Shown here: piece after piece, positions 3,781-63,804 of the stretch | Layout: each line of letters opens with the position of its first letter | Position numbering within the stretch: the stretch's first letter is position 1 | Source: Eledone cirrhosa | Lineage: Eukaryota | Reading direction: 5' to 3' | Assembly: GCA_964016885.1 (NCBI GenBank) | Contig: OZ024743.1 | Span: 361,398,001-361,462,000, forward strand | DNA length: 64,000 nucleotides | The notes under the pieces: model-generated | What the model was told of the DNA's origin: nothing | Seen by the model: only the letters and a program-made list of their open reading frames with translations | The model's database searches: none | Position numbers and translations under genes: made by a program

Positions 3781-5448
3781 AGCTGTAAGGTGTAATTTAA
3801 TGATATCAGTTAATTTTACTAAAAACGTAAACGTTCAATTACATGAATTATCTGAGTAGTTTCAGGTCGTGCGGGATATTATTATTATTAAGTTGACATT
3901 AAAAAAATAGAAATGTCTTTACTGTTTGGGAAATAAGTACTACATCGTAAATACAGTAACAAAAAATGGTGGGTAACAAAACATTGAAATGGGAGAAACT
4001 GTTAAATTAAAACATTTGCTGTTCTCTGAATCATCTCAGCTCCACAATGTAGATAACAGAAGTTATGAAGAACTATATTAATTCAGGACGATCTAGCACA
4101 CCCTCCAATCAAACTACATTGTAATACAAATCCTTAGATGAGTACAGATGTAATTCGATATTGGCTGCTGTAGCTGTAAGGTGTAATTTAGTGATATCAA
4201 CGTTATATCAGTTAATTTTAATAAAAATGAAAACGTTCAATACTCGTATCATAATTCTCAGAGCATTCAGATTATTAAGGATGGATGTGAATATTTGTTT
4301 TGTTGCTATTCATGACTTTTCTTCAATTATTAAGAGAGTTCTCACGTGATCTAATCCCATCCAATGCACATTCATTAAAAATATGCGACAGCTTGCGTAA
4401 GATAATTTCAGTAAACGTCATTATAGCAAACGAAAGAAGATATGGAATTTTTCAGGAATATATATATGTTAAGGAAGTTATGACAGGTAAATATATATGT
4501 TAAGGAAATTATGACAGGTAAATAATTAATAAACAATTAAACTGCTATTCATTTTTCTATTGTTGTATTGTATATAGTATAAAATGTAAATGTATGTAAA
4601 TGTGTCTATATTTATGGTAATGAAGAGTGTATTAATTTCTTTATTCAAAACTTGTAGCCGTTTGCAAATTATTAAAATGCTCACATTCTTTTACAATCCA
4701 ACAATTACTGATGACAATGCTTCACACTTTATAATCAAATTATATCGCTTTATCCTACAGTAACGATGAAATTTAAGTTGACAACAATGACATTAAAGCG
4801 GAATTGAAATTGTCGATAACCAGGTTGAGACTGACGATAATGAGATTAAGTTTGACGTTGATAACGAATTTTAGGTGAGAATCCAGAATATACATACGCA
4901 CATATAAGTTCAGTATAATTTCTTTTGGTAAAAACAGGAGTACATATGAGAAAGCTCTCTACATTTGTAGTGTGAAGTAACGTTGGATAATCAGTATAAG
5001 ACTAACATTAAGAAAGATGCTGATGTTACATAAATCGTTTATTCATTATAATTATTCCAACGGTTCCTTAATGTAATCCACGATGTAACGTATGCATTTG
5101 TTGATGGTGTAGGAACGGTTTCTTCAGATGAAAATCCGATTATGAGATATGCTACAGACAAAAAGAAACACGTCCTTCGTCTTGTGTACCGAGCCCACAG
5201 TGATAATTATCCCTCCCGATAATGTTTCACGGCCCTAGTGCACCTTCGTTGCATTACAGCTACATTCCAATCGGCGAAACTGTTGGCGGGAGATTGGAGA
5301 AAATATTAGGTTTTTATCTATTTTCACTTCACATTTATAATTAATAGATACCTATGATTAGCGAGACACCACACACACACCCACACACACACACACACAC
5401 ACATACACACACACACACACACACACATACACACACACACACACACAC

Positions 5449-5490
<42 letters not shown>

Positions 5491-5495
<5 letters not shown>

Positions 5496-6135
5496 AAAGA
5501 ATAGAGGTGTAACACACAAGTTATTATATATTGGTAAACGGAATAGAAAATGCTGACAAATTGTTCACAGTTGAAAAATGGTTTAATTAGGAATAAAAGA
5601 GTATTAGTGATTGTATGGGTTAGTATTCAGTTGTGGTTTTAAGTTTTTAAGTTTTTACCGGTTGCGCATTTCTAAATGCTTTTCAAAAATAATTTTGAGA
5701 TAGAGTGTCCGTGCTGTTTGCTCTGATCTGATTAGTTTTGGGAATTCTACCTGTTTTTATGTTAAAAAAGTGGCTCCAGCGTTACTTTGGTGTTGCAAAA
5801 TTCTTGTGGTCAAAACAATTTTGATTGATCGGTAGAGCTCATGTGAATGTAAAAAATTGATTTTGCGCCAAGACTGTTTTTATGTTAAAAAAGTGGCTCC
5901 AGCGCTACTTGGTGTTTGCAAAAATTCTTGTGGTCAAAACAATTTTGATTGGTCGGTAGAGGTCATGTGAATAAAAAATTGGTTTTGCGCCAAGATTGAG
6001 AAATGACTCTTTCACAACAAATATGTTTGTGCGTATGTGTGTGTGTGTGTGTGTAGTAGTAGTAGTAGTAAGGTGTTCGATGTTGTGATAATGGTTAGCA
6101 GGGATGTGTGTCAAATGGCTATTAAGATAAGTGTG

Positions 6136-6173
<38 letters not shown>

Positions 6174-6597
6174 GCAGAGTAATTCGTGGTAGCAGGGATG
6201 GTCAGTAAGAATGTGTCTGAAAGCAATGGGGGGTATTTTAGCATGTCAAAAGATATTTTTCAGCTTTTGTCCTATACGGAGAAGTCCGTGTGTGTGTGTG
6301 TGTGTGTGTATAAGTCTCTTTGTATGTTAATGTACGCGTGTGTATGTGTGTGTGTATATATATATGTGTGTGTGTGTGTGTGTGGGTGTGGGTGGACCAG
6401 TATTTGTTTCCCCCTGGTAAAATGGTGTACATTATTCGATTTTTTCAGTAAAATCGGTTCTCTTAATAGAACATCAAAAATCTTAACAATAAAAGGTGTG
6501 AAATGATATTCACTATATACATATACACATACATATATTCACCATATATACATATACATATACATACATATATATATATATGTATATATATATACAT

Positions 6598-6669
<72 letters not shown>

Positions 6670-6831
6670 ATATACACATATATTTTTTTGTGTTGCACCA
6701 TAGAGCATGTGTGTTTACGTATGTCATTGTGTTTATATGATGTTCTATTAAGAGAACCGATTTTACTGAAAAAATCGAATAATGTACACCATTTTACCAG
6801 GGGGAAAAAAATACTGGTCCACCCAGACACT

Positions 6832-6863
<32 letters not shown>

Positions 6864-7036
6864 TACACACGCGTACATTAACATACAAAGAGACTTATAC
6901 ACACACACACACACACACACACGCACTTCTCCGTATAAGACAAAAGCTGAAAAATATCTTTTGACATGCTAAAATACCCCCCATTGCTTTCAGACACATT
7001 CTTACTGACCATCCCTGCTACCACGAATTACTCTGC

Positions 7037-7073
<37 letters not shown>

Positions 7074-7151
7074 ATCTTAATAGCCATTTGACACACATCC
7101 CTTATGCTAACCATTATCACAACATCGAACACCTTACTACTACTACTACTA

Positions 7152-7223
<72 letters not shown>

Positions 7224-7710
7224 TTGTTGTGAAAGAGTCATTTCTCAATCTTGGTGCAAAACCAATTTTTTATTCACATGACCTCTACCGACCAATCAAA
7301 ATTGTTTTGACCAAAAGAATTTTTGCAAACACCAAGTAGCGCTGGAGCCACTTTTTTAACATAAAAACAGTCTTGGCGCAAAATCAATTTTTTACATTCA
7401 CATGACCTCTACCGACCAATCAAAATTGTTTTGACCACAAGAATTTTTGCAACACCAAAGTAACGCTGGAGCCACTTTTTTAACATAAAAACAAGTAGAA
7501 TTCCCAAAACTAATCAGATCAGAGCAAACAGCACGGACACTCTATCTCAAAATTATTTTTGAAAAGCATTTAGAAATGCGCAACCGATAAAAACTTAAAA
7601 ACTTAAAACCACAACTGAATACTAACCCATACAATCACTAATACTCTTTTATTCCTAATTAAACCATTTTTCAACTGTGAACAATTTGTCAGCATTTTCT
7701 ATTCCGTTTA

Positions 7711-7716
<6 letters not shown>
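5491..7716. repeat. About 950-bp inverted repeat (arms ~5532-6476 and ~6739-7716) of a PLE pseudo-LTR-like sequence, with a (TA)n-rich spacer
   Basis: The arms are near-perfect reverse complements. Each has an internal ~123-bp tandem duplication and an HHR-like motif. Only the left arm has the extra tail 5491-5531. A third partial copy is at 45130-45620. Confidence 0.9.
7555..7592 (+). ncRNA. Variant minimal hammerhead-like motif (U3-A8 core, GCAA in place of GAAA); other copies at 5652-5690(-) and 45457-45495(+)
   Basis: TTGAAAA, stem II GCATTT-AG-AAATGC, GCAA, CCGG (CCGA in this copy), TA, with a short T/A stem I. Confidence 0.5.
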
Positions 7717-7756
<40 letters not shown>

Positions 7757-21823: not shown

Positions 21824-23066
21824 ATTACCCACGGTTGGTGACAGCGTGTCTAGCACATATTTATATCCCTGTTATGAAGGAGTAATGCGGTTAAACCTAT
21901 ACAAGGAACGACCTATTCGTTTGCTAATTATACGTCGTAAAATAATAATTTTCTCATGAAATTATTGAAAACATATAATAAACGTACAGCTATATATATA
22001 TATATATAGCAGAAAAGCATTCAATACAGTGTAATTTAATTGGCTCATGCAAAGGCCAATTAATTACAGTGTTGTCAAGCAATACGACATCTTACCCATA
22101 TAAAACACCACGGCTTGATCATATCCTAAATTACTACATGATTGCATGGTCCCACAGTTCATAAGGGAGTGGTAGGGGCGCCGTATTAACATACGGCGTT
22201 TCATAGGCATTTTGAAACCTATGAGAGCCCATCTCCCCTTCGAACCTGAATACAGCAGATTTCTCACAGACAAGAATAGAGAATAAGAGAATAGATATGA
22301 GAAAGAGACATATAGGAAGAATCGACCCCAGTACTGGGAAACTACATATTTTATCGACCTCCAATGGATGAAAGACAAAGATGATTTCGGCCCCATGATT
22401 ACCTTAAGAAAATATCAAGTTAGTAGAGTGTCTATAAAAGTAGATCGCATAAAGACAGTCAAATCTTTAACCGACACACAATCAAACTCGATTAGCAAAA
22501 GCGTAAATTAAAATATATTTTTTATATTTTTTATATTTAAAATTTTTATATTTTACTTTTTTAAGTTATGCCTATCTGGTTGTATATATACATGTAGTTA
22601 CTTCACAGTCCAGTTTTGCACACTTTTCTATTTACTTTTTATAACACTCTTTTTTATTTTTTATTTATGTCTATGTACGTATGTATTTTTACTTTTATGT
22701 GTGTACCCATGCCTATGATTGCTTTCAGACACATGCGTCATTGTATATGGCTTTATCTATGTACATGAACGTTTGTATGTATGATTGTATGGACTTACAT
22801 ATTCAAATAAGTGTGTTTATGTATGTATATATATTTATACACACACACACACACGCACATATATATATACTTTCATTTATAATAGATTTTCATTTTAATT
22901 TCATATGTTACATTCATATTAAATATACATATATAATATGTATATTTAATATGAATGTAAGATATGAAATTAAAATGAAAATCTATTATAAATGAAAGTG
23001 AGGCTCAAATAAAATAACGGGAAAAGATTATACACACAGAAACAGAACGTAAAATTAGGGGTAAAG

Positions 23067-23150
<84 letters not shown>

Positions 23151-23907
23151 AGTGTAATTTTCTACACAAAACGAAGGTTATAGAGAAAATTGAGGTTGGT
23201 ATTACCAATGGAATATTACATGGAATATTACATGGAATATATGAGACAGAATACTTTTTTGTGAAAAAACATATAATTTTATAAGGTAAGGAAATAATAA
23301 AGGGTATAAAAAATAACCGGTTTCGATGGGTCTGCAAAAGCCATCTTTTCAAATGTTGATTAATATTAAGAAAAATTAATAATAAGAAGAGTTAAAATTT
23401 GAGATTTGAAAATTCAAGTATAAAATTCATTGTGGAATTTCACAGTAGTTTTCATCTTGGTAGTAGCCAGTTGACTGCTGGGTGCCCTTTTGGTAGTGAA
23501 TGAGGAGTTATTTGGGGGTGTGGGTTATTTTATAAAGATCAGATTTAGCAATGGCCAGATGGCCAGCTGCTGGTCAGTGAGGGGGTGGAAGCAATATACA
23601 TACATATATCTTCCTGTGGTCGGTAGGAAAGGGATTTAGTGCACTTACACCTATATATACACACACATATATACCTTCATCCACACATACATATACATAT
23701 ACATACACACATATATATATATATATATACATATACACACATACATACACACACACATACATATACATACACACATACACACACATATATATACACATAC
23801 ACACACACATATATATATACACACACACACATATATATACATACACATACATCCTGATACACACATACATACACACACACACACATATATATATACATAC
23901 ACACATA

Positions 23908-23944
<37 letters not shown>

Positions 23945-24340
23945 ACACACATACATACACCCACACACATAGAGAAATGGCCTCCAAATATATATATATA
24001 CATACATACACATATTTTTTCCATAATATAAGAAGTTGGGACAGTGAAATTAAAATACAAGTCATTCTGATCACATTGAGTTCTTCATGTAGATTGGGCC
24101 CGGCAACCGACAGTGGTGAATTCTGTGTGCGCATATATATATATAGATATATGTGTGTGCACGTGCAGGGTTTAACATGGATGTGTTGGTCACACAAAGG
24201 CATGGTCTGTCAACGAATAAACCTGATTCTACAGAATTGGTCTCTGGTCTTTAATAGTAGTGATAATTATATACATGCACACATACAAACACATATATCT
24301 GTCACTCCGTGCGTATGTGAGTTTATATTTTATGATAATT

Positions 24341-24631
24341 CTATTGGGATGATAACCCGTTTAGTTTTGGTTTAAATTTGTTAAGGAATAGATTTTCTTT
24401 GTTTATTCTTTGTTGCTGTGTGAACGAATCTGAGCACTTGTAGAAGGGGAAGATTTTAAAGTTGGGTAGTGTCATTCCTGCGCAGTTCGCAATATGGCTG
24501 CTCAAGGGGATTTTTCTTGTGTTAGCGTCCCGGATTTGTTGGCGGTGGATGGTCATTCTTTTGCGTAATGAGGTGCCCGTCTGTCCTATGTAGTTGTGTT
24601 TGCACCCACCGCAAGTTATTGCGTAAATCAA
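24341..24631 (-). pseudogene. PLE GIY-YIG endonuclease domain (Neptune-like by its CxxC motif; clade assignment is inference)
   Basis: IY..CxxC..YIGQT..LRKRM..H motif in an intact 96-aa frame that is truncated at the 5' end. Confidence 0.85.
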
Positions 24632-25146
24632 GTGTGTGTATGTATGTGTGTATCAGGATGTATGTGTAAGTATATATATGTGTGTGTATATGTATGTGTG
24701 TGTATGTGTATATATATGTGTGTATGTGTGTATGTATATGTATGTGTGTGTGTATGTATGTGTGTATATGTATATATATATATATATATGTGTGTATGTA
24801 TATGTATATGTATGTATGTGTGGATGAAGGTATATATGTGTGTGTATATATAGGTGTAAGTGCACTAAATCCCTTTCCTACCGACCGCAGGAAGATATAT
24901 GTATGTATATTGCTTCCACCCCCTCACTGACCAGCAGCTGGCCATCTGGCCATTGCTAAATCTGACCTTTATAAAATAACCCACACCCCCAAATAACTCC
25001 TCATTCACTACCAAAAAGGCACCCAGCAGTCAACTGGCTACTACCAAGATGAAAACTACTGTGAAATCCCACAATGAATTTTATACTTGAATTTTCAAAT
25101 GTCAAATTTTAACTCTTCTTATTATTAATTTTTCTTAATACTAATC

Positions 25147-25194
25147 AACATTTGAAAAGATGGCTTTTGCAGACCCATCGAAACCGGTCATTTT
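25147..25194 (+). ncRNA. Minimal type I hammerhead, U3-A8 core variant; other copies at 23311-23357(-), 35529-35575(-) and 36448-36495(+)
   Basis: TTGAAAA (25152-58), stem II GATGG/CCATC, GAAA, palindromic CCGG, TC. Stem I is short with one mismatch. Confidence 0.75.
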
Positions 25195-25293
25195 TTATAC
25201 ACTTTATTATTTCCTTACCTTATAAAATTATATGTTTTTTCACAAAAAAGTATTCTGTCTCTTATATATTCCATGTGCCATTACCAACTTCAA

Positions 25294-25366
<73 letters not shown>

Positions 25367-25541
25367 CATACATATATATATATATACATATATACATATA
25401 TATATATCTTTACCCCTAATTTTACGTTCTGTTTCTGTGTGTATAATCTTTTCCCGTTATTTTATTTGAGCCTCACTTTCATTTATAATAGATTTTCATT
25501 TTAATTTCATATCTTACATTCATATTAAATATACATATTAA

Positions 25542-25617
<76 letters not shown>

Positions 25618-25852: not shown

Positions 25853-26554
25853 ATATATATATATATATATATATACATATATGTATATATATGTAAGTAG
25901 AAGGGAATTTTAATTTGTTTGAAATACAACAAATATAAATGATTATATCTGATTCAGAGCACTGGACAGATTTTGGAGTAAATATTCAATGGTATTAAAT
26001 AAATGAATACAATATTTATAATACCATATTTATTCTATTATATATATTTCAAGGGTGCCAACATTTAGGTACGCTATCATCAGATAAAATACAAAATGTC
26101 TTATAAATATTTGACATAACCAAGGATAATATACCTTAACGGTTCAAGTTATCCCTGGAAAATGAGGGGAAGAGAAAAAAACGAGATATTGAAATTATTA
26201 ATATGAGTATGCAAATGAGGTTTATGTAAAAGGGGTGAAAAAAACGTTATTTTAGGTTTCTGTAAATTCTGTATTGAAGAAGATTCTGTAAATTGTGTAT
26301 TGAAGAAATATTTGATATAATTAATTGTAAAAACTCTATTAATCTCAGAAGAGAGATATTTAGTTCTTGCAGACATCGCCAAAATTCTACATTCAGAACA
26401 AATAACGATAAAAACAAATGACGAAACGAAATTAAATTTCGTTTCGTTTGTAACTCACTTTTGTATGACAGACGCTTACAAACGAAACGAAATTTAATTT
26501 CGTTTCGTTATTTGTTTTTATCGTCTCCGCTGAACCGGTACGTACTCATGCTCT

Positions 26555-26603
26555 ATGCAAATTAGTCTGCCCACTACTAATTTTCATAGAAAAAGCATAT
26601 AAC
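26555..26603 (+). promoter_or_regulatory. Octamer plus TATA-like box upstream of the HHR (also 27021; 37212 and 37657 on minus; 63478)
   Basis: ATGCAAAT lies 88-100 nt before the HHR core in all three arrays, with a TATA-like run ~45-57 nt before the core. Confidence 0.55.
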
Positions 26604-26647
26604 GATATGTGCTTTTACGATTCTCTAGAAAGGCCGGAAGATAGGTA

Positions 26648-26692
26648 AATATTGCTGATGAGATGTAACAACATCGAAACTAGTCCAATATT
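26648..26692 (+). ncRNA. Type I hammerhead ribozyme, canonical core
   Basis: AATATTG CTGATGA GATGT-AACA-ACATC GAAA CTAG TC CAATATT: 7-bp stem I, 5-bp stem II, palindromic minimal stem III, GUC cleavage site. Confidence 0.93.
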
Positions 26693-27113
26693 CCTTGTCT
26701 GGCTTTCTGGAGAATAGAGGAAAGGTGTTTCCTCGAAAACCAGTATGACTCTAAAAACCGGTTTGTCTGTGTGTTTACATACAGAATAGCTGGACACTCA
26801 CAGTAAAGTGACCAGTGAAAAACTCGGTACATCTACATATGTATACGTGTGTGTATTCATATGCATACTAGTATTTCAGTATACATATGTGGATGTACAT
26901 TTTTAACTTAATTGTTTAAGCGTCTGTCATACAAAAGTGAGTTACAAACGAAACGAAATTTAATTTCGTTTCGTTATTTGTTTTTATCGTCTCCGTTGAA
27001 CCGGTACGTACTCACGCTCTATGCAAATTAGTCTGCCCACTACTAATTTTCATAGAAAAAGCATATAACGATATGTGCTTTTACGATTCTCTAGAAAGGC
27101 CGGAAGATAGGTA

Positions 27114-27158
27114 AATATTGCTGATGAGTTGTAACAACAACGAAACTAGTTCAATATT
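27114..27158 (+). ncRNA. Type I hammerhead ribozyme, second unit of array 1
   Basis: AATATTG CTGATGA GTTGT-AACA-ACAAC GAAA CTAG TT CAATATT. Stem II has a compensatory A-U to U-A change relative to unit 1. Confidence 0.92.
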
Positions 27159-28201
27159 CCTTGTCTGGCTTTCTGGAGAATAGAGGAAAGGTGTTTCCTC
27201 AAAAACCAGTATGACTCTAAAAACCGGTTTGCCTGTGTGTTTACATACAGAATAGCTGGACACTCACAGTAAAGTGACCAGTGAAAACTCGGTACATCTA
27301 CATATGTATACATGTGTGTATTCATATGCATACTAGTATTTCAGTATACATATGTGGATGTACATTTTTAACTTAATTGTTTAAGCGTCTGTCATACAAA
27401 AGTGAGTTACAAACGAAACGAAATTTAATTTCGTTTCGTTATTTGTTTTTAAAATATATATATAGATATTTATATATTATTATAATAAGATAAAAAATTT
27501 CAAACATAATTCTCCATATAAATATATACATAATATAGACAAACATCTGAATATATTTCTCCCAAATTAACGTTTAAGTGGTCTTCCTTTTCCTTTTCCT
27601 TTTCCATTTCCTTCTTGTTATTTTTCCTTCTTCTTTAACGATTTTTTGTTTGATAATCTATATAGCTTCGTTAAACTAACAATATTCTGAAAACATTCTC
27701 ATTGTTGAACAACATTTTTGAATCCACAAATTATTCTACTCTCACAACATGAAAATACAATTTCAACTTCCTTCGTAACTCATATTTGATATATAAACAA
27801 TCAATACATACGCAAATTATTAATATATATATATATAGATATTTATATACATATAACCTATCCTAATGTAATAAGATAAAAATACTTGCAACCATAATTC
27901 TTCATATAATCTAATTGATTATACAATATTATAACTCATAATATAGGTAACAGACCTTTTAACCCAAATTATTCCTTACTCTTCCTTCCTACGCATACAG
28001 TAACTTATTATAATTATTTAAATTTTCCATAGCCTCTAAAATAACGTTTTTTTTCAATCCTTTAACATAAACCTCATTTGCATACTCATATTAATAATTT
28101 TAGATATCTGTTTTTCTTTTCTTCCCTTCACTTCCCAGGGATAACTTGTACCGTTAAGGTATATTATCCTTGGTTACGTCAAATATTTATGAAACATTTT
28201 G

Positions 28202-28262
28202 TATTTTATCTGATGATAGCGTACCAAAATGTTGGTACCCTTGAAATATATATAATAGAATA
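28202..28262 (+). ncRNA. Type I hammerhead in a PLE pseudo-LTR; inverted copy at 26031-26091(-)
   Basis: TATTTTAT CTGATGA ..GTACCAA-AATG-TTGGTAC.. GAAA TATATA TA ATAGAATA, with an 8-bp stem I. Confidence 0.82.
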
Positions 28263-28324
28263 AATATGGTTTTATAAATATTGTTTCTATTTATTTAATA
28301 TTATTGTGTATATATATATATGTA

Positions 28325-32733: not shown

Positions 32734-33020
32734 ATGTTTGAGCTCATTATTGACAGGGAATAGCGAGAGTTAATCTATCGTGATATATATATATATATTT
32801 ATATATTTATATATATATAATTTCATTTCTCACTATTACTGCAGCACTTACTTAAATGTAAGTATGTATGTATGTATACGTACATACATATATGTATACA
32901 GACGTACAGTAGTATATATATATATACATACATGCACACATATATATGCACGTATCGGTTTACCGAACATTTATTATAATGCTCGGTTTGTTTCTTTGTA
33001 AACAAACAAACAACCCGAAT

Positions 33021-36640
<3,620 letters not shown>

Positions 36641-36647
36641 TATATAT

Positions 36648-36717
<70 letters not shown>

Positions 36718-36839: not shown

Positions 36840-37930
36840 GAAATTCTCACTCTTAGTACGGCACTTACTTAAATGTAAGTATGTATGTATGTATACGTAC
36901 ATACATATATGTATACAGACGTACAGTAGTATGTATATGTATACATACATGCACACATATATTTATGCACGTATCGGTTTACCGAACATTTATTATAATG
37001 CTCGGTTTGTTTCTTTGTAAACAAACAGAGGCCGAATTACGCCGTACGGTGTTTAGGCAACCACGTCACCTTTTTGTTCAACACTGACACAGGAACGATG
37101 TACTAGTTTCAAGCTTATAAGTTATGGTCAGCATCGTATACCTTCCTGCCAGTTGGTTGAACGTCTGAAAGTATATAATTTCCCTATGCATATTAACGGC
37201 TGAGCAGCCTAATTTGCATATCGTGTGAGTTCAGTCGGCCGGGCACACCGAAAACGATAAATGGAATAGAATGAAACAAAATTTCATTTTTCACTCTTAT
37301 ACGGCACTTACTTAAATGTAAGTATGTATGTTTGTATACGTACATACATATATGTATACCGACGTACAGTAGTATGTATATATATACATACCTGCACACA
37401 TTTATATATTCACGTATCGGTTTAGCGAACATTTATTATAATGCTCGGTTTGTTTTTTTGTAATCAAACAAACAGCCCGAATTACGTCGTAAAGTGTTTA
37501 GGCAACCACGTCCTTTTTTTGTTCAACACGGACAAAGGAACGATGTACTAGTTTCAAGCTTGTTAGCTATCGTCAGCATCGTATACCTTCCTGCCAGATG
37601 GTTGAACGTCTGAAAGTATATAATTTCCTTATGCATATTAACGGCTGAGCAGCCTAATTTGCATATCGAGTGAGTTCAGTCGGCCGTGCACACCGAAAAC
37701 TATAGATGGAATAGAATCAAACGAAATTTCATTTCTCACTCTTAGTACGGCGTAATTCGGGCTGTTTGTTTGTTTACAAACAAACAAATTGAGCATTATA
37801 ATAAATGTTCGGTAAACCGATACGTGCATATATATATATATATGTGTGCATGTATGTATATATATATATATATACTACTGTACGTCTGAATACATATATG
37901 TATGTACGTATACATACATACTTACATTTA
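36840..37930 (-). mobile_element. Retrozyme-like tandem array 2: about 2 units of 445 nt with an inverted 5' segment (37745-37930); partial copy at 32820-33020
   Basis: Period 445 (stem I at 37095 and 37540). One HHR and one octamer per unit. Ends in (TA)n. Confidence 0.85.
37540..37582 (-). ncRNA. Type I hammerhead ribozyme; the sister copy at 37095-37137(-) has a G8C core mutation
   Basis: Minus strand reads ACGATG CTGACGA T AGCT-AACA-AGCT T GAAA CTAG TA CATCGT. Stem I can extend through AGGAA/TTCCT. Confidence 0.9.

Positions 37931-41674: not shown

Positions 41675-41690
<16 letters not shown>
40910..41690 (-). mobile_element. Old PLE pseudo-LTR pair (inverted arms ~41045-41135 and ~41590-41685) with a degenerate HHR; related to 52380-53395
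   Basis: Minus strand TGCT CCGATAA ATCCATAC..GTTTGGAA GAAA CAATTG TC. Shares the tail tactaccttattaccagtaag with 52477. Confidence 0.65.
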
Positions 41691-41743
<53 letters not shown>

Positions 41744-42840
41744 ATAATAATAAATTTCAAGACTAAAATCCAAAGAGGGCTCGATAAGGATAAATATATA
41801 TCAAATATATAAGAGCCGTAGAGCAAATATTTATTAAAATAACAGATTAAAGTTTAAGCAAAGAATCGCTGCTTTCACCCTTAACGGGATCTTCTGAAAC
41901 TAACAAAGTCAATCTGTAAACGCAGAAGTGGATATTTAAAAAAACGTTGCAACCGGAGGAAGACAGGAAGACGATACTTTGGTTCTTGGAAACGTTCGCT
42001 GGCAAAGAACGGGAAAAAACGAATAAGATACGTGATTAATAGGAGCGGTGAAAAACAATTACGCGCAAAGGCAGAACCACGTTTATGGTATAAAAGTGGT
42101 CGTAGACTAATGTTCTCTTAGGTGGTTCATAGAGACGATTCTCCGGCAATGAACGAAAAAAACGAAGATAATACGTCATATGTGGAGCGTGGAGAACAAT
42201 AACACGCAAAGACAAAACCACGTAAATGGTATAGCAGAAGTCGTAGACTAAAATTCTAACTAGGAGACCGAATGAATCTCTGCTACAGAGTTAAGAACAA
42301 AGTAAATAAATACAATACAGAAGTAATAGAAATAAATAAATACATACCCGCTAACAAATACGTACATACACAAGCATACGCAAAACACTTACCAAAGGTA
42401 TACAAAACCACGCACATATAAATATGTATGTGTGTGTATGCGTGTATACAAATAAATAAATAATTAAATAAACGTAAATAAATACGTATATAACAAGCGC
42501 ACACACATACCTCCATGTAAATACACGAATGTTCGGAGACGTAAGTCAACCAAAACATGAAATACACATATACACGCACCCTACATACGTGCGAACCTGC
42601 ATACTCACACAGACGCAAAACTCCCGTATACACATAGCCAAACAATATGTACCAGAATAAAAAAAATTAAAAAATGTATACGCCATAATATAAACAATCA
42701 AATGTACGTACGGGAAGGTATACGTAACTTCACGAAACATACGGGTAATATATACTTACCTATGCAAATAATTAATTGTATAAACAAAACATATACTTAG
42801 CTCCCACATCGAGACGTAAAATATCCACGTATAGATCGAA

Positions 42841-43910
42841 CTATCCGTTAGGGTATAACGTGGGGCTGTAATACAGGAAAGTTTTGTGCAATTTATGTTT
42901 ACGAGCCGAAATTGTCTCAGATTTTTTGTTTAAGATGTGGTCTGTGGCGTAGAGTATTTCCAGGGCCTCAGCGGCGCAGAGGTCACATGGTCTTTTATTT
43001 CCGTTATACGATCTAGCCCTAGCTAGGATCTCCCAGTGTAACTTATATTGGGTGTGGTTGTCATTTAGACTCAAGATATAAGCTGAAAGTGACGTCATAT
43101 TCCTTCTTAGAGGGTAACGAAAAGAATGGGTATGCATGTAAAGACGCTGCTTGAATCTATTGGCGGTTAACCCTATGTAGGCCCTACGGGACGTGGGTGT
43201 TACAACCTTACATTTGTAGACAATGTTACTAGAGAGGCATTTCCCGGATAGGGGGCAATCAACCCGATTCCTACAATTACAGTTAGTACTAACTACAGGG
43301 TTGCACGTGTTCCTACGGCTAGGTAGTTTAGCTAAATTTGAAGCTGTGATGTTATGTGCAAGGTTAGGAGTCGTAGAGAAAGAAATTTTAATAGTATTTC
43401 TATTAAAAATTTTACTATATTTATGTGTAGGGGGAAAATGCTTCGTAATAAGGGAAAGAAAGATGTTAGCTATTGGTGTGGCCACCTCCATATTATATGG
43501 TGGGTTATACCAACAAATGCGACGGGATCTATTTCTTCTAGGTCTAATTTCGTACTCTGTAAATGCTACCTTATCGACAAATCCACTTCGAGCAAGAGCT
43601 TCATTGTAATAAGTGGAATGGTCGTTGAAAATACGCTCGTTGGTGAAAAGACGGGAGAGCCTCAACGAAACGTTTCTTACCAGGTTCTTGGTTATGCTGG
43701 CGGGATGGTTGGAATGCTTACTTATGTAATTAAGCGAATCATTCGGCTTTCTATACGGGTAATACAACCCATTCAATAAATTGAGGGTAACGTCAAGGTA
43801 ATTAACGACCGAGAGATTGGCCTCAACCTGTATAGAGAGGTTGAAGACTTTAAAGAAGGCTGTTAGTTCTTTTCTGAACCTGTCGCAAGCACGAGGTCCG
43901 CACTTAGTCA
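42841..43910 (-). CDS. PLE polyprotein C-terminal part: RT motif E/thumb, Cys-rich linker and GIY-YIG endonuclease (open frame, 5' truncated)
   Basis: NYLDVTLNL..YYPYRKPN..YI..SNHP, WYNPPY, LITKHFP, CNCRNRVDCPLSGKCL..IVYKC..YIGLT..FKQRL..H..SF, CDLCAAE. The first ~100 aa of ORF 42841-44205 come from the inverted pseudo-LTR and are not real coding sequence. Confidence 0.92.
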
Positions 43911-44756
43911 TAGGTAAGTATATATTACCCGTATATTTCGTGAAGTTACGTATACCTTCCCGTACGTATATTTGATTGTTTATGTTATGGCGTATACATT
44001 TTTTTATTTTTTTTATTCTGGTACATATGGTTTGGCTATGTGTATACGGGAGTTTTGCGTCTGTTTGAGTATGCAGGTTCGCACGTATGTAGGGTGTGTG
44101 TATATGTGTATTTCTTGTTTTGGTTAACTTACGTCTCCGAACATTCGTGTATTTACGTGGAGGTATGTGTGTGCGCTTGTTATATACGTATTTATTTACG
44201 TTCATTTAATTATTTATTTATTTGTACACACGCATACACACACACACATATTTATATGTGCGTGGTTTTGTATACCTATGGTAAGTGTTTTGCGTATGCT
44301 TGTGTATGTACGTATTTGTTAGCGGGTATGTATTTATTTATTTCTATTACTTCTGTATTGTATTTATTTACTTTGTTCTTAACTCTGTAGCGGAGATTCA
44401 TTCGGTCTCCTAGTTAGAATTTTAGTCTACGACTTCTGCTATACCATTTACGTGGTTTTGTCTTTGCGTGCTATTGTTCTCCATGCTCCACATATGACGT
44501 ATTATCTTCGTTTTTTTCGTTCATTGCCGGAGAACGTCTCTATGAACCACCTAAGAGAACATTAGTCTACGACCACTTTTATACCATAAACGTGGTTCTG
44601 CCTTTGCGCGTAATTGTTTTTCACCGCTCCTATTAATCACGTATCTTATTCGTTTTTGTCCCGTTCTTTGCCAGGGAACGTTTACACGAACCAAAGTATC
44701 GTCTTCCTGTCTTCCTCCGGTTGCAACGTTTTTTTAAATATCCACTTCTGCGTTTA

Positions 44757-44830
44757 CAGATTGACTTTGTTAGTTTCAGAAGATCCCGTTAAGGGTGAAA
44801 GCAGCGATTCTTTGCTTAAACTTTAATCTG
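44757..44830 (+). ncRNA. Extended type I hammerhead with a U4A core (CAGAAGA); other copies at 41843-41916(-), 28340-28413(-) and 53563-53616(-, partial)
   Basis: CAGATTGA-ctttgtt-AGTTT CAGAAGA T CCC-GTTAA-GGG T GAA AGCA..TGCT T AAACT TTAATCTG: all three stems plus a distal stem I extension. Confidence 0.8.
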
Positions 44831-44838
44831 TTATTTTA

Positions 44839-44909
<71 letters not shown>

Positions 44910-45689: not shown

Positions 45690-47572
45690 CTGTCTGAGTT
45701 TGTTTATCGGTAAGCCCATATAAATATATGCCTATACGTATGTATCTGTATGAAAGATTGGCTATGTGTGGTAGGAACTTATAAATCTACACTCATTTCA
45801 ACCTTTATCAATCTTATCAAATAGCCAATGTGTATTACATAGAGTATTTAACACATCTCTACTTTACACTTGCCAATTCCATATCTTCAACTTTATCTGT
45901 AATAGGCCATCTGGATACAGCTTACACTAAATAGATGTATTAGCTGTCATCCGGCTTGGCTTTAATAAAGACTATCCCATTTATTCTATATATGATCACT
46001 TCTAAACGAATGGAAGCTAGCATTTATGTACTATATGAGCCTGTTGGATACCCATTGGTTAACATATTGGCCAGTCCTCCTTATCATCGCCAGTATCCAT
46101 ATATTACACATTTTCTGATGAATTGTTGACGTTAAAACTATTGCAATGCGGAAATGATTGGAATATCCTAACAAACCCGTAGACAGTGAGATAACTCAAA
46201 AATGAAACATGTAAAAATGTATAATGAAATAGTTTTTTTCTAATACCCCCTTGTATGTTTATCCTTAATACGTGAATTATATATATATACACTATTATAT
46301 TTTGGGATGGCCATGTTGTTAATATTGCCAAAAAATGAAACAAGCAACAAATGATTTGCTTTATTACTTGTTATTGGTTAGTTTGTCAGAGTCCTTTCGT
46401 CACACATTCTGTGACATCTTCAATGACTATCTATTATCGGTTGTACCTCCTCTGCTTTCTGGTCTTAATTCGTTTCTCCATTTTATCATTCGTTTCGTGG
46501 TGTGTTTTTCGTGATTCATGTCAATGAATGCTATTGTATCCACGCCTTCTCGTGTGTGTGAGTGTGACTTTGTATTTATCATGTGTATGTGCGTTTTATG
46601 TGTAGGCATGTATATTTCACTGCTTGTATCTTTTTTCTTCTTCCATATTCTGTCTTCAGTCGTGACGAGCTGTTTTTATATCGCTCGTGGTTTCTGTTCA
46701 TGCTAAATCTAGCAAATGTGTGTGGCCTCAATCACATATCATAATCGAGATGATCTTATATATATATATATATAAGAACCATTAACGCCGTTATTGGATG
46801 CATTCAACACAAATTATTTTAAAATTAAATTTATAAAGCCTATTAACACACATTTTACGATTTATAAATATCCATTATCGGTGACTAATTAGGAGAAAGA
46901 CTACATACACATACAAACACCGATACAAATACACGCGCGCGCGCCTATCACACACTCACACACACAAACATAAATATATGTGCTTGATATCCCCGTCAAC
47001 CCACAGGAGAGAATCCAGAGTAAAATAAAACCATTAAACTTTACTATGATATTTAACCTTTTCATATATAGAAACCTATACAAACACAATGAATCTCACA
47101 CCTTACATAAACCCACATGGTGTGACTACTTTCAAACCAAGGCAATCTTAATTATAATAAAGAAAGGAGTGCGGGACTGCATTCAGAATATATTTTACTG
47201 ATTACAGAAGACAGTGTAACATAACTTCGTTCAATTACTGTGTATATTGTCAATTACGATTTTATTTGATGTATCATATCTACATGCATATATATTTGTA
47301 TATAATATCAATATACACACTACACATGCTAGCAGAAAACCCTCTGAGGGTTGTTTTTCTGCTAGTATATATAAACAATAATGAACGACTATTCCGCTAG
47401 AAAAAGGTGCCGAAATATTAGTCTCGACAGCTCTACAAATTAAGTGAAATGGAGCTATAATAGAGAAAGGTGAGGAATCAAAACATATCAAATATGTTAG
47501 ATTTCCGTGCTTCTCAATAAACCAGCTCAATAGTCTTTATTCAAAGCCATACTAATTCAAATGTAAAAGATC

Positions 47573-47619
<47 letters not shown>

Positions 47620-51607: not shown

Positions 51608-52203
51608 TTGGCAGTATCGGTAGAGGGTCGGACACCATGCTTTCCAGCATAGTTACGTCCCTTTACGATCTGAGTTCAAATCCCGTCGAGGTTGACTTTG
51701 CCTTTCATCCTTACGGCGTCGATGAAATAAAGTACCAGTAACGCACTGGGTAATTGCTGGCCTTGTGCCTAAAGTAGAAACAATTATTTATTCGAAGGGC
51801 GGTAGATTGGCAGTATCAGTAGAGGGTCGGACGCCATGCTTTCCAGCATAGTTACATCCCTTTACAATCTGAGTTCAAATCCCGCCGAGGTTGACTTTGC
51901 CTTTCATCCTTACGGGGTCGATAAAATAAAGTACCAGTAATGTACTGGGTAATTGCTGGCCTTGTGCCTAAAGTAGAAACAATTATTTATTCGAAGTATA
52001 TAGGGCGGTGGATTGGCTGTATCGGCAGAGACTCGGACACCATGCTTTGCAGGATAGTTACGGCCCTTTACGGTCTCAGTTCAAATCCCGCCGAGGTTAA
52101 CTTTGCCTTTCATCCTTACGGGCTCGATAAAATAAAGTACCAGTAATGTACTGAGATAATTGCTGGCCTTGTGCCAAAAGTAGAAACAATTATTTACTTG
52201 AAG
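51608..52203 (+). mobile_element. Three head-to-tail copies of the ~200-bp SINE
   Basis: Units start near 51608, 51797 and 52003, each with GTTCAAATCC and the same 3' end. Confidence 0.9.
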
Positions 52204-52304
52204 TAATCCAATTTATTTTACTAACGGGATAAAAATATATATTCTGGACGCAGCCTCTCACCTTCCTTTATTATATTTATATACATATAAATATATATAC
52301 ATAC

Positions 52305-60534: not shown

Positions 60535-60539
60535 TCATT

Positions 60540-62822
60540 AGCTAAGAAAAACAAGACCACAAATTTCACAAGGTAGACAGTATTAAAAGATTGTCAACAT
60601 AGTTTTAGTTTGATGTAAGGAATGTAGAGAATAATAATAATAATATTAATAATAATAATGTATGTTTACAATTGTTTCGCTACTCCGTATTTCTGGATCA
60701 AATGGTTATAGATCATTATTGATCTGGTTTAGTTGAAAATAATTAACTTAGGTACAATTGAACAGCTCATTGGAACTTCAGAAGGAATATAAATTAAAAT
60801 AAGGAAAGAATGTTACATGAATGTAATGTTCCATATATTGGTATTTCACTATGGTGACCTGGGTATATCTATTGTCTGCCATAGTCGAGCAGTATTCTTC
60901 TGTCGAGGCTGCATTGTGTGAGATCTGCCTATGGGTAACAAGATGGCCGCCAATGGACATATTTACCTTACTAATTAGAGGGTGGTTTCAGGGGAAGTAA
61001 CTCCTCGAGAAATTAGAAATTGTGGGTAGTTTATAGTTAAGAAGTGCTAATTCTGTTCATTTTTTTTATAGAGAGACAATGTAAGGGAGGTAACTTATAA
61101 TTATCTAAGTTAGCTATAACTATTTAACGTATTAGCTATAAGTAAAAATGGGAATAGATGACTATGTTGGGTCAAATATTCTGTTGGCGAAGGAATTAGC
61201 CTTTCGATGTTGACAGCTAATAGTTACCTCCGTTCTATCGTTAATCTGTAGAGGTCACAAGAGTTTCTTTATTAATTGAACGGTTGGGCCCAAGCCAATA
61301 TATCCCATGTTAGTGAGTGTTCAATTTAAGGTTTTTAATGAGCCTAGCTAGAGATGTCGAACATCTGTTGTTAGGGTCTCGGAAGGAAAAAGAGTGCGCG
61401 TTATAGCGTACCTTAAAAGGGTTAGAGGTATAGCCGATATAGGAGCTGGTATGCGAAGCAGTTTTAACTGTGCACCTATAAACTATATTGGGTGTCAGGC
61501 AATGTCCGTTTAGTGGGCATGCATTAGGGTAATGGCAGTTGCAGTATTTTCTGCGGTTAGTGAGAGTACGGGTGTTTAAATTATGCGGTGGTCCGTGCTA
61601 GAAAGATTAGATGGGGGAGGTGTGCTACTAGAGTAAGTATTGGTGTAGTGGCGTGGTGTATTTGATGGGGGTGGTGGTACCGCGGTGTGGGAGTTATACT
61701 GTCTTAGTTTATGATGGTTACTGAATGCGATGTGGCTAGCTAGGTTAGGTGTTGTGGAGAATGAGAATTTAATGTTGTTTAAATATCTATGGTTGGGGGA
61801 AATGTTTAGATAGGATAGAGAAGAAGCGTTTAGAGATATTAGTGGCTAGATTAGATTAGATGAGAATGCGGGGTTAAGCCAGGTGATATTTCTAGGCCTA
61901 TTCCTTCTAAGGGTACTAGTGGAGTTGGTAGGGGCCTTCATATGGTTATTATTACCTGGACATTTGTTATTTGTCATCCCATTACTCATTCCTATTCTAG
62001 GGTTGATTTTTAGTTTGCTACTTGGAGTGGGAAGTAGGCCACTGCCACCATTAAGTTTCCCTATAGGTGCTGTTACTGCGAAAATTCCGGCGAATCTTGC
62101 TATATGCTAACGTATTTCTAGTTCTAGTGTTAAGTTTATTATGGTTGTGGTGAAATGCTGTGTTATGGCATTTAGGGATGTAGTAAATGGACTGTTCATA
62201 ACCAGATTCAGAAAGAGCCTTATTATAATATGCCGCATGGTTTATAAATATCTCCTCATTTGCTGATAGCATGGAGATCCTATACGAGATAGATTTGATT
62301 ACTGCTCTGATGACTGCCGGTGGGTGGTTAGAGTGTGGGCTAATATATGTAAGTATTTCACCTGGTTTATGATAAGGGTAATATAGGTTAATATTCTAGG
62401 GTAACGTCTAGGAAGTTTACTATTTTATGGTTATTTTAAAAGAATCTATGTAATTGTTTTTTGAGCAAGTCAATGCCTCGATTAGTCCAATTGTGAACTG
62501 CAAATAGAGCGTCGTCCCTATATATTCCGCCTTGCAAGGGATGGATTTCAGCTCTGATGTTATGTAATATGTAAATTCCAACTAAATCGGTGATTTGCGC
62601 AGAGTCACTTGAGCCCATAGTGATGTCAACATTGTCTGTTCTGTCTTTTCTAGTCCAGAGTGCTCCGTTGAATTCAATGATGGTCTGCCTAGCCATAAGT
62701 ATGATGTCAATCTCATTATTGGTTATATCAGAGTTGGTGCTGGCTAGGTTTAATGCTTTGTTGAGCAGTGCCGGGATTATTGAAGCGTAATAGCTGTCAA
62801 TGTCAAATTGGAGGAACCTCAT
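60540..62822 (-). mobile_element. Decayed 5'-truncated PLE (RT core 62436-62822, thumb, linker, GIY-YIG ~61200-61560, pseudo-LTR)
   Basis: LQFDIDSYYASI, MGSSDSAQITDLVG, GGIYRDDAL, WLNPAF, YCNCH..CPLNGHCL..IVY. An HHR 3' half GAAACAATTGTA lies at ~60666-60679(-). Confidence 0.88.
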
Positions 62823-62916
62823 AGATTCCTTGCAAATCAGGGACGATCAGTCACTGCGTATTTTTGAAAACAGCAGATATTTTCACTAGTTCTGACAGTT
62901 TGGCAGGTGAACAGTC

Positions 62917-62964
62917 AGCTGTACTGATGAACGGTGATACCCAGAAACATTAGTGTCTGCAGTT
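62917..62964 (+). ncRNA. Type I hammerhead ribozyme; sister copy at 63567-63608
   Basis: AGCTGTA CTGATGA A(C/G)GGT-GAT-ACCCA GAAA CA-TTAG-TG TC TGCAGTT, GUC site. Confidence 0.88.
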
Positions 62965-63083
62965 CTGATCACATGCCAACAGAAAAGCAAGAATGAAGGG
63001 TTCATTCTACTGACATAGCTATAAAATTTGGGCTTGCTTGCATAATTGCAACCAAATCGAATGCTATTATTAATATTCGAAAA

Positions 63084-63271
63084 TCAGGCGGTGGATTGGC
63101 AGTATCGGTAGAGGGTCGGACGCTATGCTTTCCTGCATAGTTACGTCCCTTTACGATCTGAGTTCAAATCCCGCCGAGGTTGACTTTTCCTTTCATCCTT
63201 ACGGGGTCGATAAAATAAAGTACCAGTAATGTACTGGGTAATTGCTGGCCTTGTGCCTAAAAGTAGAGACA
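63084..63271 (+). mobile_element. SINE inserted in array 3 with a probable 18-bp target-site duplication
   Basis: ATTATTAATATTCGAAAA at 63066-63083 and 63272-63289. The second unit has a single (empty) site near 63699. Confidence 0.85.
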
Positions 63272-63763
63272 ATTATTAATATTCGAAAAACTCAGATTAC
63301 ATTTATTGTGTTCAGCCATGTAGAGCGAAAACATTTTCTTTTTTATGTGAATTTGGCAAAGCCGGCCATTTATCGCTCGTATACAGGAAACTGACCGACC
63401 AGTCTGTTGCTATGCAAATCAGGCTGATCAGTGGATCTGATAATATGCAGATCTGACTGGTCAGCCAATCTGCTAATATGCAAATCAGGCCGATCAGTCA
63501 CTGTGTATTTTTGAAAATAGCATATATATTCACTAGTTCTGACGGTTTGGCAGGTGAACAGTGAGCTGTACTGATGAAGGGTGATACCCAGAAACATTAG
63601 TGTCTGCATACCAACACAAAGCAAGAATGAAGGGTTCATCTACTGACATGACCATAAAATTGAGGCTTGTTTGCATAATTGCAACCGAATCGAATGTTAT
63701 TATTAATAATCGAAAAACAGATTACATTTATTGTATTCAGCTATGTAGAGCAAAGAAATTTTC

Positions 63764-63804
<41 letters not shown>

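Follow-up and report, generated by a model that had tools for sequence, protein, structure and literature searches.

In the genome of Eledone cirrhosa, PLE-type mobilization of retrozymes is well supported genome-wide: the (TA)n targets, the use of one end site per arm, the head-to-head inversion of the arms and the existence of rare age-matched insertions whose second arm belongs to another family (mixed arms) all argue for it, and the footprint and the mixed arms together point to a PLE enzyme as the agent. The reading that we prefer, and hold to be probable, is that hammerhead repeats are inserted as two arms into (TA)n by the RT/GIY-YIG machinery of PLEs, that the first of three arrays in the window (the whole 64-kb stretch analysed) was nested later in its PLE host and that the third may be a mixed insertion. 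A sequence-only reading of the window had proposed this mobilization, with template switching between PLE and retrozyme RNAs, and had taken the window junctions as direct evidence. The mobilization itself is upheld genome-wide by the end sites, the TA targets and loci L011, L204 and L119; as direct evidence array 1 falls away, and the age test of array 3 is split. The elements are thus of a known kind and the flagged junction is ordinary nesting, and it is likely the age-matched mixed arms found elsewhere that give the physical link. F1–F4, PLE1–PLE11 and the L-numbers are labels coined in this analysis for families and loci.

Three hammerhead arrays and their PLE neighbours

The three tandem arrays (Table 1) are built of units of 466, 445 and about 440 bp that carry a type I hammerhead motif in which stem III is short. 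The core and the three stems of this predicted motif are present in F1, F2 and F3, with cores at 26655 and 27121 (+) in array 1 and at 62924 and 63571 (+) in array 3. Rfam HH9 matches array 1 with E values of 2.5e-6 and 6.1e-6 (38.9 and 37.7 bits, below the gathering threshold of 52). Stem II shows a compensatory change both between the two array 1 units and among copies of F1, the counts of which are not independent events. The arrays are non-coding, without an RT or GIY-YIG ORF (no ORF of 100 codons was listed across array 1), and the ORF pieces are carried by the neighbouring PLEs. These PLE pieces were identified by tblastn among themselves and by GIY-YIG matches in two of them, most PLE pieces of the window being unrecognized by Pfam; a local PLE protein has one named match, from Octopus vulgaris (58% identity). 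Genome-wide, tandem arrays reach many units. Judged on sequence, the arrays would fit the metazoan non-LTR retrozyme kind: non-coding, tandem, dispersed and with a predicted hammerhead.

Table 1. Features of the three arrays and of the PLE insertions around them (window positions)
Feature	Positions	Strand
PLE1 inverted arm (pLTR, long end site), minimal hammerhead core at 26083	25890..26256	-
PLE1 5'-truncated main arm, last endonuclease ORF codons (FCKLCIEE...CRHRQN)	26280..26399	+
9-nt templated slip from the retrozyme unit, AAC overlap with the PLE; non-canonical left joint	26400..26408	-
Array 1 inverted arm, unit 397-466, 3-nt overlap with main arm	26409..26478	-
Array 1 main arm, family F1, 2.1 units of 466 bp	26476..27451	+
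Type I hammerhead motif, array 1 unit 1	26640..26705	+
Type I hammerhead motif, array 1 unit 2, compensatory stem II change	27103-27174	+
Remaining PLE1 3' UTR and pLTR, minimal hammerhead core at 28210, short end site terminus	27452..28306	+
Array 2 main arm, family F2, two 445-bp units, one intact hammerhead core (37576)	36844..37751	-
Array 2 inverted arm, F2 short end site, then (TA)n	37746..37930	+
PLE3, 5'-truncated (RT core to GIY-YIG, 3' UTR), short end site in (TA)n	60535..62832	-
Array 3, family F3, about 1.7 units of about 440 bp, long end site then (TA)n	62831..63768	+
SINE-like repeat of about 190 bp, later insert in array 3, 18-bp target duplication (63066, 63272)	63084..63271	+

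The region 25890-28300 is one complete two-armed PLE1 insertion with array 1 inside it. The own truncation/inversion joint of PLE1 lies at 26256/26280, and its two arms end at opposite end sites, one at the long and one at the short site (the opposite-end rule). Array 1 had been described as sitting at a PLE truncation point; it is instead nested in the 3' UTR of PLE1, approximately 130 bp away from that joint. In four paralogous copies (L032, L033, L041 and L044) the place of array 1 is taken by the own 3' UTR of the element (about 650-700 bp), as it is, with a further deletion, in L034 and L042; about 650 bp of PLE1 has been deleted in the window. The right end of array 1 is the F1 long end site, at a TA-rich spot of the PLE1 3' UTR, and this joint is co-linear with PLE1, with a TTA overlap, while the inverted arm is without the usual second F1 end site. 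We read the left joint, with its 9-nt slip and its overlap, as a probable deletion-repair scar. The F1 units of array 1 diverge from their nearest copy by 0.8-0.9%, compared with 5.0-5.5% for PLE1, and from the family majority at 14/931 positions, compared with 27/724 for PLE1 (P = 0.006). Array 1 is younger, its host is complete by itself and the paralogues keep their UTR; array 1 is therefore most likely a later insertion nested in an older, self-complete PLE1 copy, followed by a deletion. No target-site duplication was seen at array 1; inside (TA)n, duplications of this kind are unreadable. Array 1 was rejected as a template-switch product on its position in the 3' UTR and its lower age, and it was likewise rejected as a mixed-arm co-insertion, since the joint is not at the truncation, the ages are unequal and PLE1 already has two arms.

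Array 2 has a mutated core in its second unit (CTGACCA), and its main 3' end (36844) lies off any F2 end site, followed by 130 bp of other sequence without (TA)n. No PLE joint was found at array 2 against the PLE library built here. One canonical end is thus missing in each of arrays 1 and 2. The short inverted copies reported at the 5' ends of both arrays are indeed there (Table 1), whereas the statement that all three arrays end in TA holds for arrays 1 and 3 and for the inverted arm of array 2, not for its main 3' end. A short two-armed F2 fragment with TA on its flanks lies elsewhere in the window (32783-33021).

Array 3 and PLE3 meet head-to-head even more tightly than the proposed distance of about 10 bp, with a 2-nt overlap (TG, common to both) at 62831/62832. 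Among 19 sibling PLE3 copies, 18 extend well past 62832 and the remaining one stops only a few bases from it; the window PLE3 is hence 5'-truncated at this point. Array 3 ends at the F3 long site and PLE3 at the short site of its own family, both in TA. Array 3 was rejected as the own pLTR of PLE3, as it has no similarity with the PLE3 3' region. Compared with the family majorities, unit 1 of F3 shows 22/237 differences, unit 2 19/424 and PLE3 49/1569. Pooling the units (41/661) gives array 3 a higher divergence than PLE3 (P = 0.001), but no significant difference from PLE3 is left when unit 2 is taken by itself (P = 0.18), and unit 1 differs from unit 2 (P = 0.02). The geometry and the end sites fit a single-event mixed-arm insertion and the ages are split, and we consider the case for such an origin to be evenly balanced. 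No empty site for array 3 was seen among the examined loci, and no record bridging its joint was listed among the contigs and reads, which is uninformative.

The SINE-like insert of array 3 deserves a remark of its own. Its target duplication resembles the 3' end of the repeat itself (63066-63289), and this repeat is seen by eye in roughly eight of 29 F3 loci (L077, L080, L083, L085, L088, L093, L098 and L104), at the same F3 site or close to it, whereas a strict pattern recovered only two of the 29; homology-guided targeting is possible. A 199-bp SINE-like repeat is also present as three tandem copies at 51608-52206 of the window.

Two arms and two end sites genome-wide

The host genome (3.0 Gb) is rich in microsatellites and contains at least 1717 dispersed exact matches to the F1 long end followed by TA, together with 320 matches to one variant of the short end; the backwards control gave none. 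We examined the 34 top-scoring F1 insertions (set 1), 97 of the first 100 long ends listed (the remaining three being already in set 1) and 90 of the first 100 listed among the 320 short ends. L203 (at an edge) and L213 (a false inversion) were dropped from the long-end set before counting, and eight edge rows were dropped from the short-end set, two of which were later read as self-inverted and one of which stayed unread; ten loci of the short-end set duplicate earlier ones, and L214 and L215 are duplicates. Once edges and repeats had been removed, approximately 205 distinct readable F1 joints were left. On the PLE side, the samples comprised 19 PLE3 siblings, 11 PLE7 loci and 29 PLE2 loci.

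F1 insertions show a variable 5' truncation with an inverted copy adjoining it, and a tail on one side only. BLAST detects self-inversion in 70 of 96 loci of the long-end set (one false call removed) and in 63 of 82 of the short-end set, and further mini-arms of 7-20 nt are visible by eye. The two end sites are used reciprocally. Inverted arms facing the 466 end terminate at 392-399 in 64 of 67 cases, and none at 466; those facing the 393 end terminate at 462-467 in 57 of 59, and none at 393. This amounts to 121 of the 126 visible cases. The joints between arms mostly show an overlap or a gap of a few bases. F2 and F3 likewise show a pair of end sites each, and the opposite-end rule is followed by the local PLEs, namely by seven of eight PLE3 copies and by four of five PLE7 copies that are two-armed by eye (L154, L157, L184 and L389; L156 fails). 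Targets are (TA)n or AT-rich, as seen at unforced ends and at partner arms; pattern-anchored ends, which are forced to TA, were excluded from this evidence. Other two-armed, TA-flanked insertions of PLE type were noted in the window at 5415-7754, 22859-25615, 35320-36714 and 41690-44846.

Mixed-arm insertions and what chance would give

About 21 of the F1 joints have a foreign, non-simple partner. In five of them this partner is young and stands head-to-head with F1 (two PLEs and three other tandem families), no young foreign partner being in the same orientation. In L011, F1 (0/466) and PLE7 (0/593) are both identical to their nearest copies, and the PLE7 frame is open to its stop. In L204, a 39-nt F1 bridge is followed by PLE8, F1 and PLE8 both being 1.0% diverged. 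In the three others F1 is joined to an F2-related family with partner units 98.5% alike (L135), to F2b, which is also F2-related (L315; F1 0.5%, F2b 0.45%, with a 29-nt F1 bridge), and to a 613-bp tandem family with partner units 99% alike (L282). Three of the five (L204, L282 and L315) come from the position-ordered samples, and mixed arms with a PLE make up two of the approximately 205 F1 joints, only one of them from those samples. From the PLE side, one of the 19 PLE3 siblings (L119) carries an F2 arm as close to its family majority as PLE3 is to its own (10/384 versus 45/1628, P = 1); a retrozyme arm of equal age was found at none of the 11 PLE7 loci and at none of the 29 PLE2 loci. In L011, L204, L119, L315 and array 3 the two arms use opposite end sites, while in L135 both use the same one; the rule is followed in five of six testable cases, which is not significant alone (P = 0.11); the partner in L282 cannot be typed. 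No empty site was seen for any mixed insertion. These insertions are likely to show the PLE enzyme copying both RNAs in what would be a single event, and the bridges of L204 and L315, which are co-linear with the 5' end of the partner, suggest a short-lived switch to the partner RNA or to the new cDNA.

Several other loci were noted in the course of this survey. The 613-bp family (L282 and L080) ends in (TA)n and its units are 99% alike; no canonical hammerhead was found on its sense strand, and Rfam named no ribozyme in it. PLE7 (L147-L157) is very young, with at least 40 listed copies that share 99-100% identity over 594 bp, and L148 holds a PLE7 open frame of 716 codons, which makes PLE7 a candidate active enzyme. 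In L153 (2374 onward), a young PLE7 copy faces, head-to-head, the endonuclease end of another PLE family. A GC-rich foreign piece of 65 nt lies exactly at an F1 inversion joint in L253 (744-864; the same insertion as L312), for which Rfam returned nothing credible; it is possibly a captured cellular RNA. Finally, in L079 (1265-1456) the F3 long end directly adjoins a piece of PLE endonuclease that has the same orientation, with no TA between them; this is a candidate for a co-linear template switch.

PLE sequence occupies 20% of the window and 7-8% per strand of the 276 kb of flanks from 92 loci (11% of the non-simple sequence). With such a cover a PLE neighbour is expected often and is weak evidence by itself; in a PLE-rich genome, a neighbour like that of array 1 is expected by chance. 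With PLEs of any age counted, two of the seven joints that have a foreign partner in the position-ordered sample of 466 ends have a PLE there (P = 0.18). Copies within 2% of the library references cover only 0.15-0.37% of the flanks per strand, a lower bound with the incomplete PLE library built here, and at least five young partners in 25, PLEs and other tandem families together, have P = 1e-4 even at an assumed cover of 2%. For the two PLE cases alone, P ranges from 0.005 to 0.09 according to the young-PLE cover assumed, with n set to 25.

Insertion plus deletion does mimic the geometry of mixed arms, as shown by two rejected loci in which the PLE partner is older: L020, where F1 has 2/466 differences and the PLE 10/356 (P = 0.006) and which breaks the opposite-end rule, and L189, where the PLE is 93-94% identical to its nearest copy. 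PLE-type neighbours in the same orientation (L136, L310 and L317) are about as common; the PLE of L136 is also older (2.6% versus 0.2%). Five further loci (L183, L122, L199, L232 and L258), in which a PLE or another repeat is separated by TA or faces a canonical end, were read as common TA targets. L320, whose head-to-head partner is a short palindromic repeat that diverges by about 3% from the copy closest to it, was left out of the count. A repeat present twice in the window (33320-33365, -, and 47528-47573, +) matches the Rfam Histone3 stem-loop with 36.5 bits, compared with a gathering threshold of 34; this is probably a hairpin of the repeat.

We may wonder at this stage whether PLE machinery moves the retrozymes and yet every PLE/retrozyme joint is secondary, through sharing of TA targets or through nesting plus deletion of the inner arm. 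All of the families target (TA)n, often side by side, PLE cover is high, arm-removing deletions are visible in arrays 1 and 2 and in L136, L189, L020, L222 and L226, and pooled array 3 is more diverged than PLE3. We nevertheless consider this unlikely, as L011, with no difference in either arm, hardly allows the time needed for two insertions plus a deletion, young PLEs are present in only two of the 92 flanks, all five young partners are head-to-head, and the bridges of L204 and L315 are co-linear with the 5' end of the partner.

It is very improbable that a single RT switched from one template to the other, between PLE RNA and retrozyme RNA, and that all three window arrays record this. The co-linear right joint of array 1 at the F1 long end site, with its TTA overlap, the bridges of L204 and L315 and the joint of L079 would be expected from such a switch. 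However, array 1 is younger than PLE1, which already follows the opposite-end rule with its own two arms, no PLE joint was found at array 2 with the library built here, the head-to-head arrangement of array 3 is not what a simple co-linear switch produces, and the one co-linear neighbour that was dated (L136) has an older PLE. As a general route, template switching thus gives way to mixed arms that meet head-to-head, each with its own primed 3' end, and what is retained of it is the short bridge at the joint (39 nt in L204 and 29 nt in L315).

LINE mobilization or satellite recombination, with the PLE-like shape due to coincidence or to an assembly fold-back, is the least credible explanation: the enzyme is deduced from its footprint, clear pLTR homology was not seen in the library built here and array growth has been modelled by unequal crossover, according to the accessible text of a study on Xenopus (10.64898/2026.07.22.740005), but the two fixed end sites are reciprocal and common to the local PLEs, a fold-back artefact would not yield different fixed ends on the two arms, the F1 insertions are dispersed in large numbers and no poly(A) ends were seen in the flanks inspected.

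A proposed two-ended insertion model and its relatives

In the mechanism that we favour, a PLE protein, predicted to be a dimer, would cleave a TA tract on both strands. From one of the DNA ends, priming would take place at the long start site of an RNA and from the other at the short start site, and both cDNAs would halt at random points and be joined head-to-head through an overlap of a few nucleotides. The same RNA species would usually be copied into both arms; in about 2% of F1 insertions, the second end would be primed on a different RNA belonging to the system, that of a PLE or of a further tandem family, and synthesis would at times switch briefly to the template of the partner where the arms meet. 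Arms of several units would fit a template that is circular or multimeric. A more specific version is plausible, although we lean slightly against it: each insertion would be made by two RTs able to hold two different RNAs, and the start site would be set by the DNA end or the protomer rather than by the RNA. Mixed arms would then pair retrozyme families with the PLEs that move them, F1 depending on at least two PLE families.

In L1 twin priming, the two arms derive from non-overlapping stretches of one RNA and a fixed 3' end is found on one arm only, and the U6/L1 chimeras produced by template switching are co-linear. The likeness to the present insertions is that both strands prime, that microhomology joins the products and that chimeras of two RNAs mark a common enzyme. 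Here, in contrast, both arms have fixed 3' ends and overlapping sequence, and the mixed arms are head-to-head.

In the accessible part of the literature, PLEs are described with inverted 5' copies, a one-sided tail and a (TA)n bias (Craig et al., 2021; PMC8557442), and a PLE protein, predicted to form a dimer, cuts and extends both strands in vitro, with two internal start sites (Frangieh et al., 2024; PMC11167929). The retrozymes share with endonuclease-positive PLEs the 5' truncation, the inverted 5'-truncated copy, the tail at one end and the (TA)n or AT-rich target (PMC8557442), and the two end sites of F1 match the two PLE start sites and the one-sided tail, as far as the accessible text of both papers describes them (PMC11167929; PMC8557442). 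They differ in that they encode no protein and that the tails here measure about 37-135 nt depending on the family. The accessible text of the same two papers mentions no mixed arms drawn from two RNAs (PMC8557442; PMC11167929).

For metazoan non-LTR retrozymes, PLEs have been named as a strong candidate for mobilization (Cervera & de la Pena, 2020; PMC7229834), and in Xenopus the co-occurrence with PLEs and the kinship with pLTRs have led to the proposal of PLE mobilization, 24 of 57 retrozyme families matching known repeats, nearly all of them PLEs (Li, Clavereau & Pollet, 2026; 10.64898/2026.07.22.740005); the statement of the sequence-only reading that such a link had already been proposed is therefore correct, on the accessible portions of these texts. 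The present arrays resemble these retrozymes in their non-coding hammerhead units, which range from monomers to multimers beside autonomous PLEs, while the same portions mention no two-armed insertions, fixed end sites or PLE/retrozyme joints (PMC7229834; 10.64898/2026.07.22.740005). Unlike the Xenopus families, as far as the accessible account of them goes, F1-F4 have no clear sequence similarity to the pLTRs of the incomplete library built here. No report of PLE/retrozyme junctions or of mixed arms was found in the searchable full text, which leaves out most subscription and older Penelope work.

Age-matched mixed arms bear both on who moves animal retrozymes and on how the inverted ends of PLEs form. 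They would be physical evidence beyond co-occurrence and kinship, they name candidate pairs of enzyme and RNA, and they qualify the reading that both arms always derive from one RNA circle. If the version with two RTs is true, mixed arms are fossil records that pair retrozyme families with the PLE families that move them.
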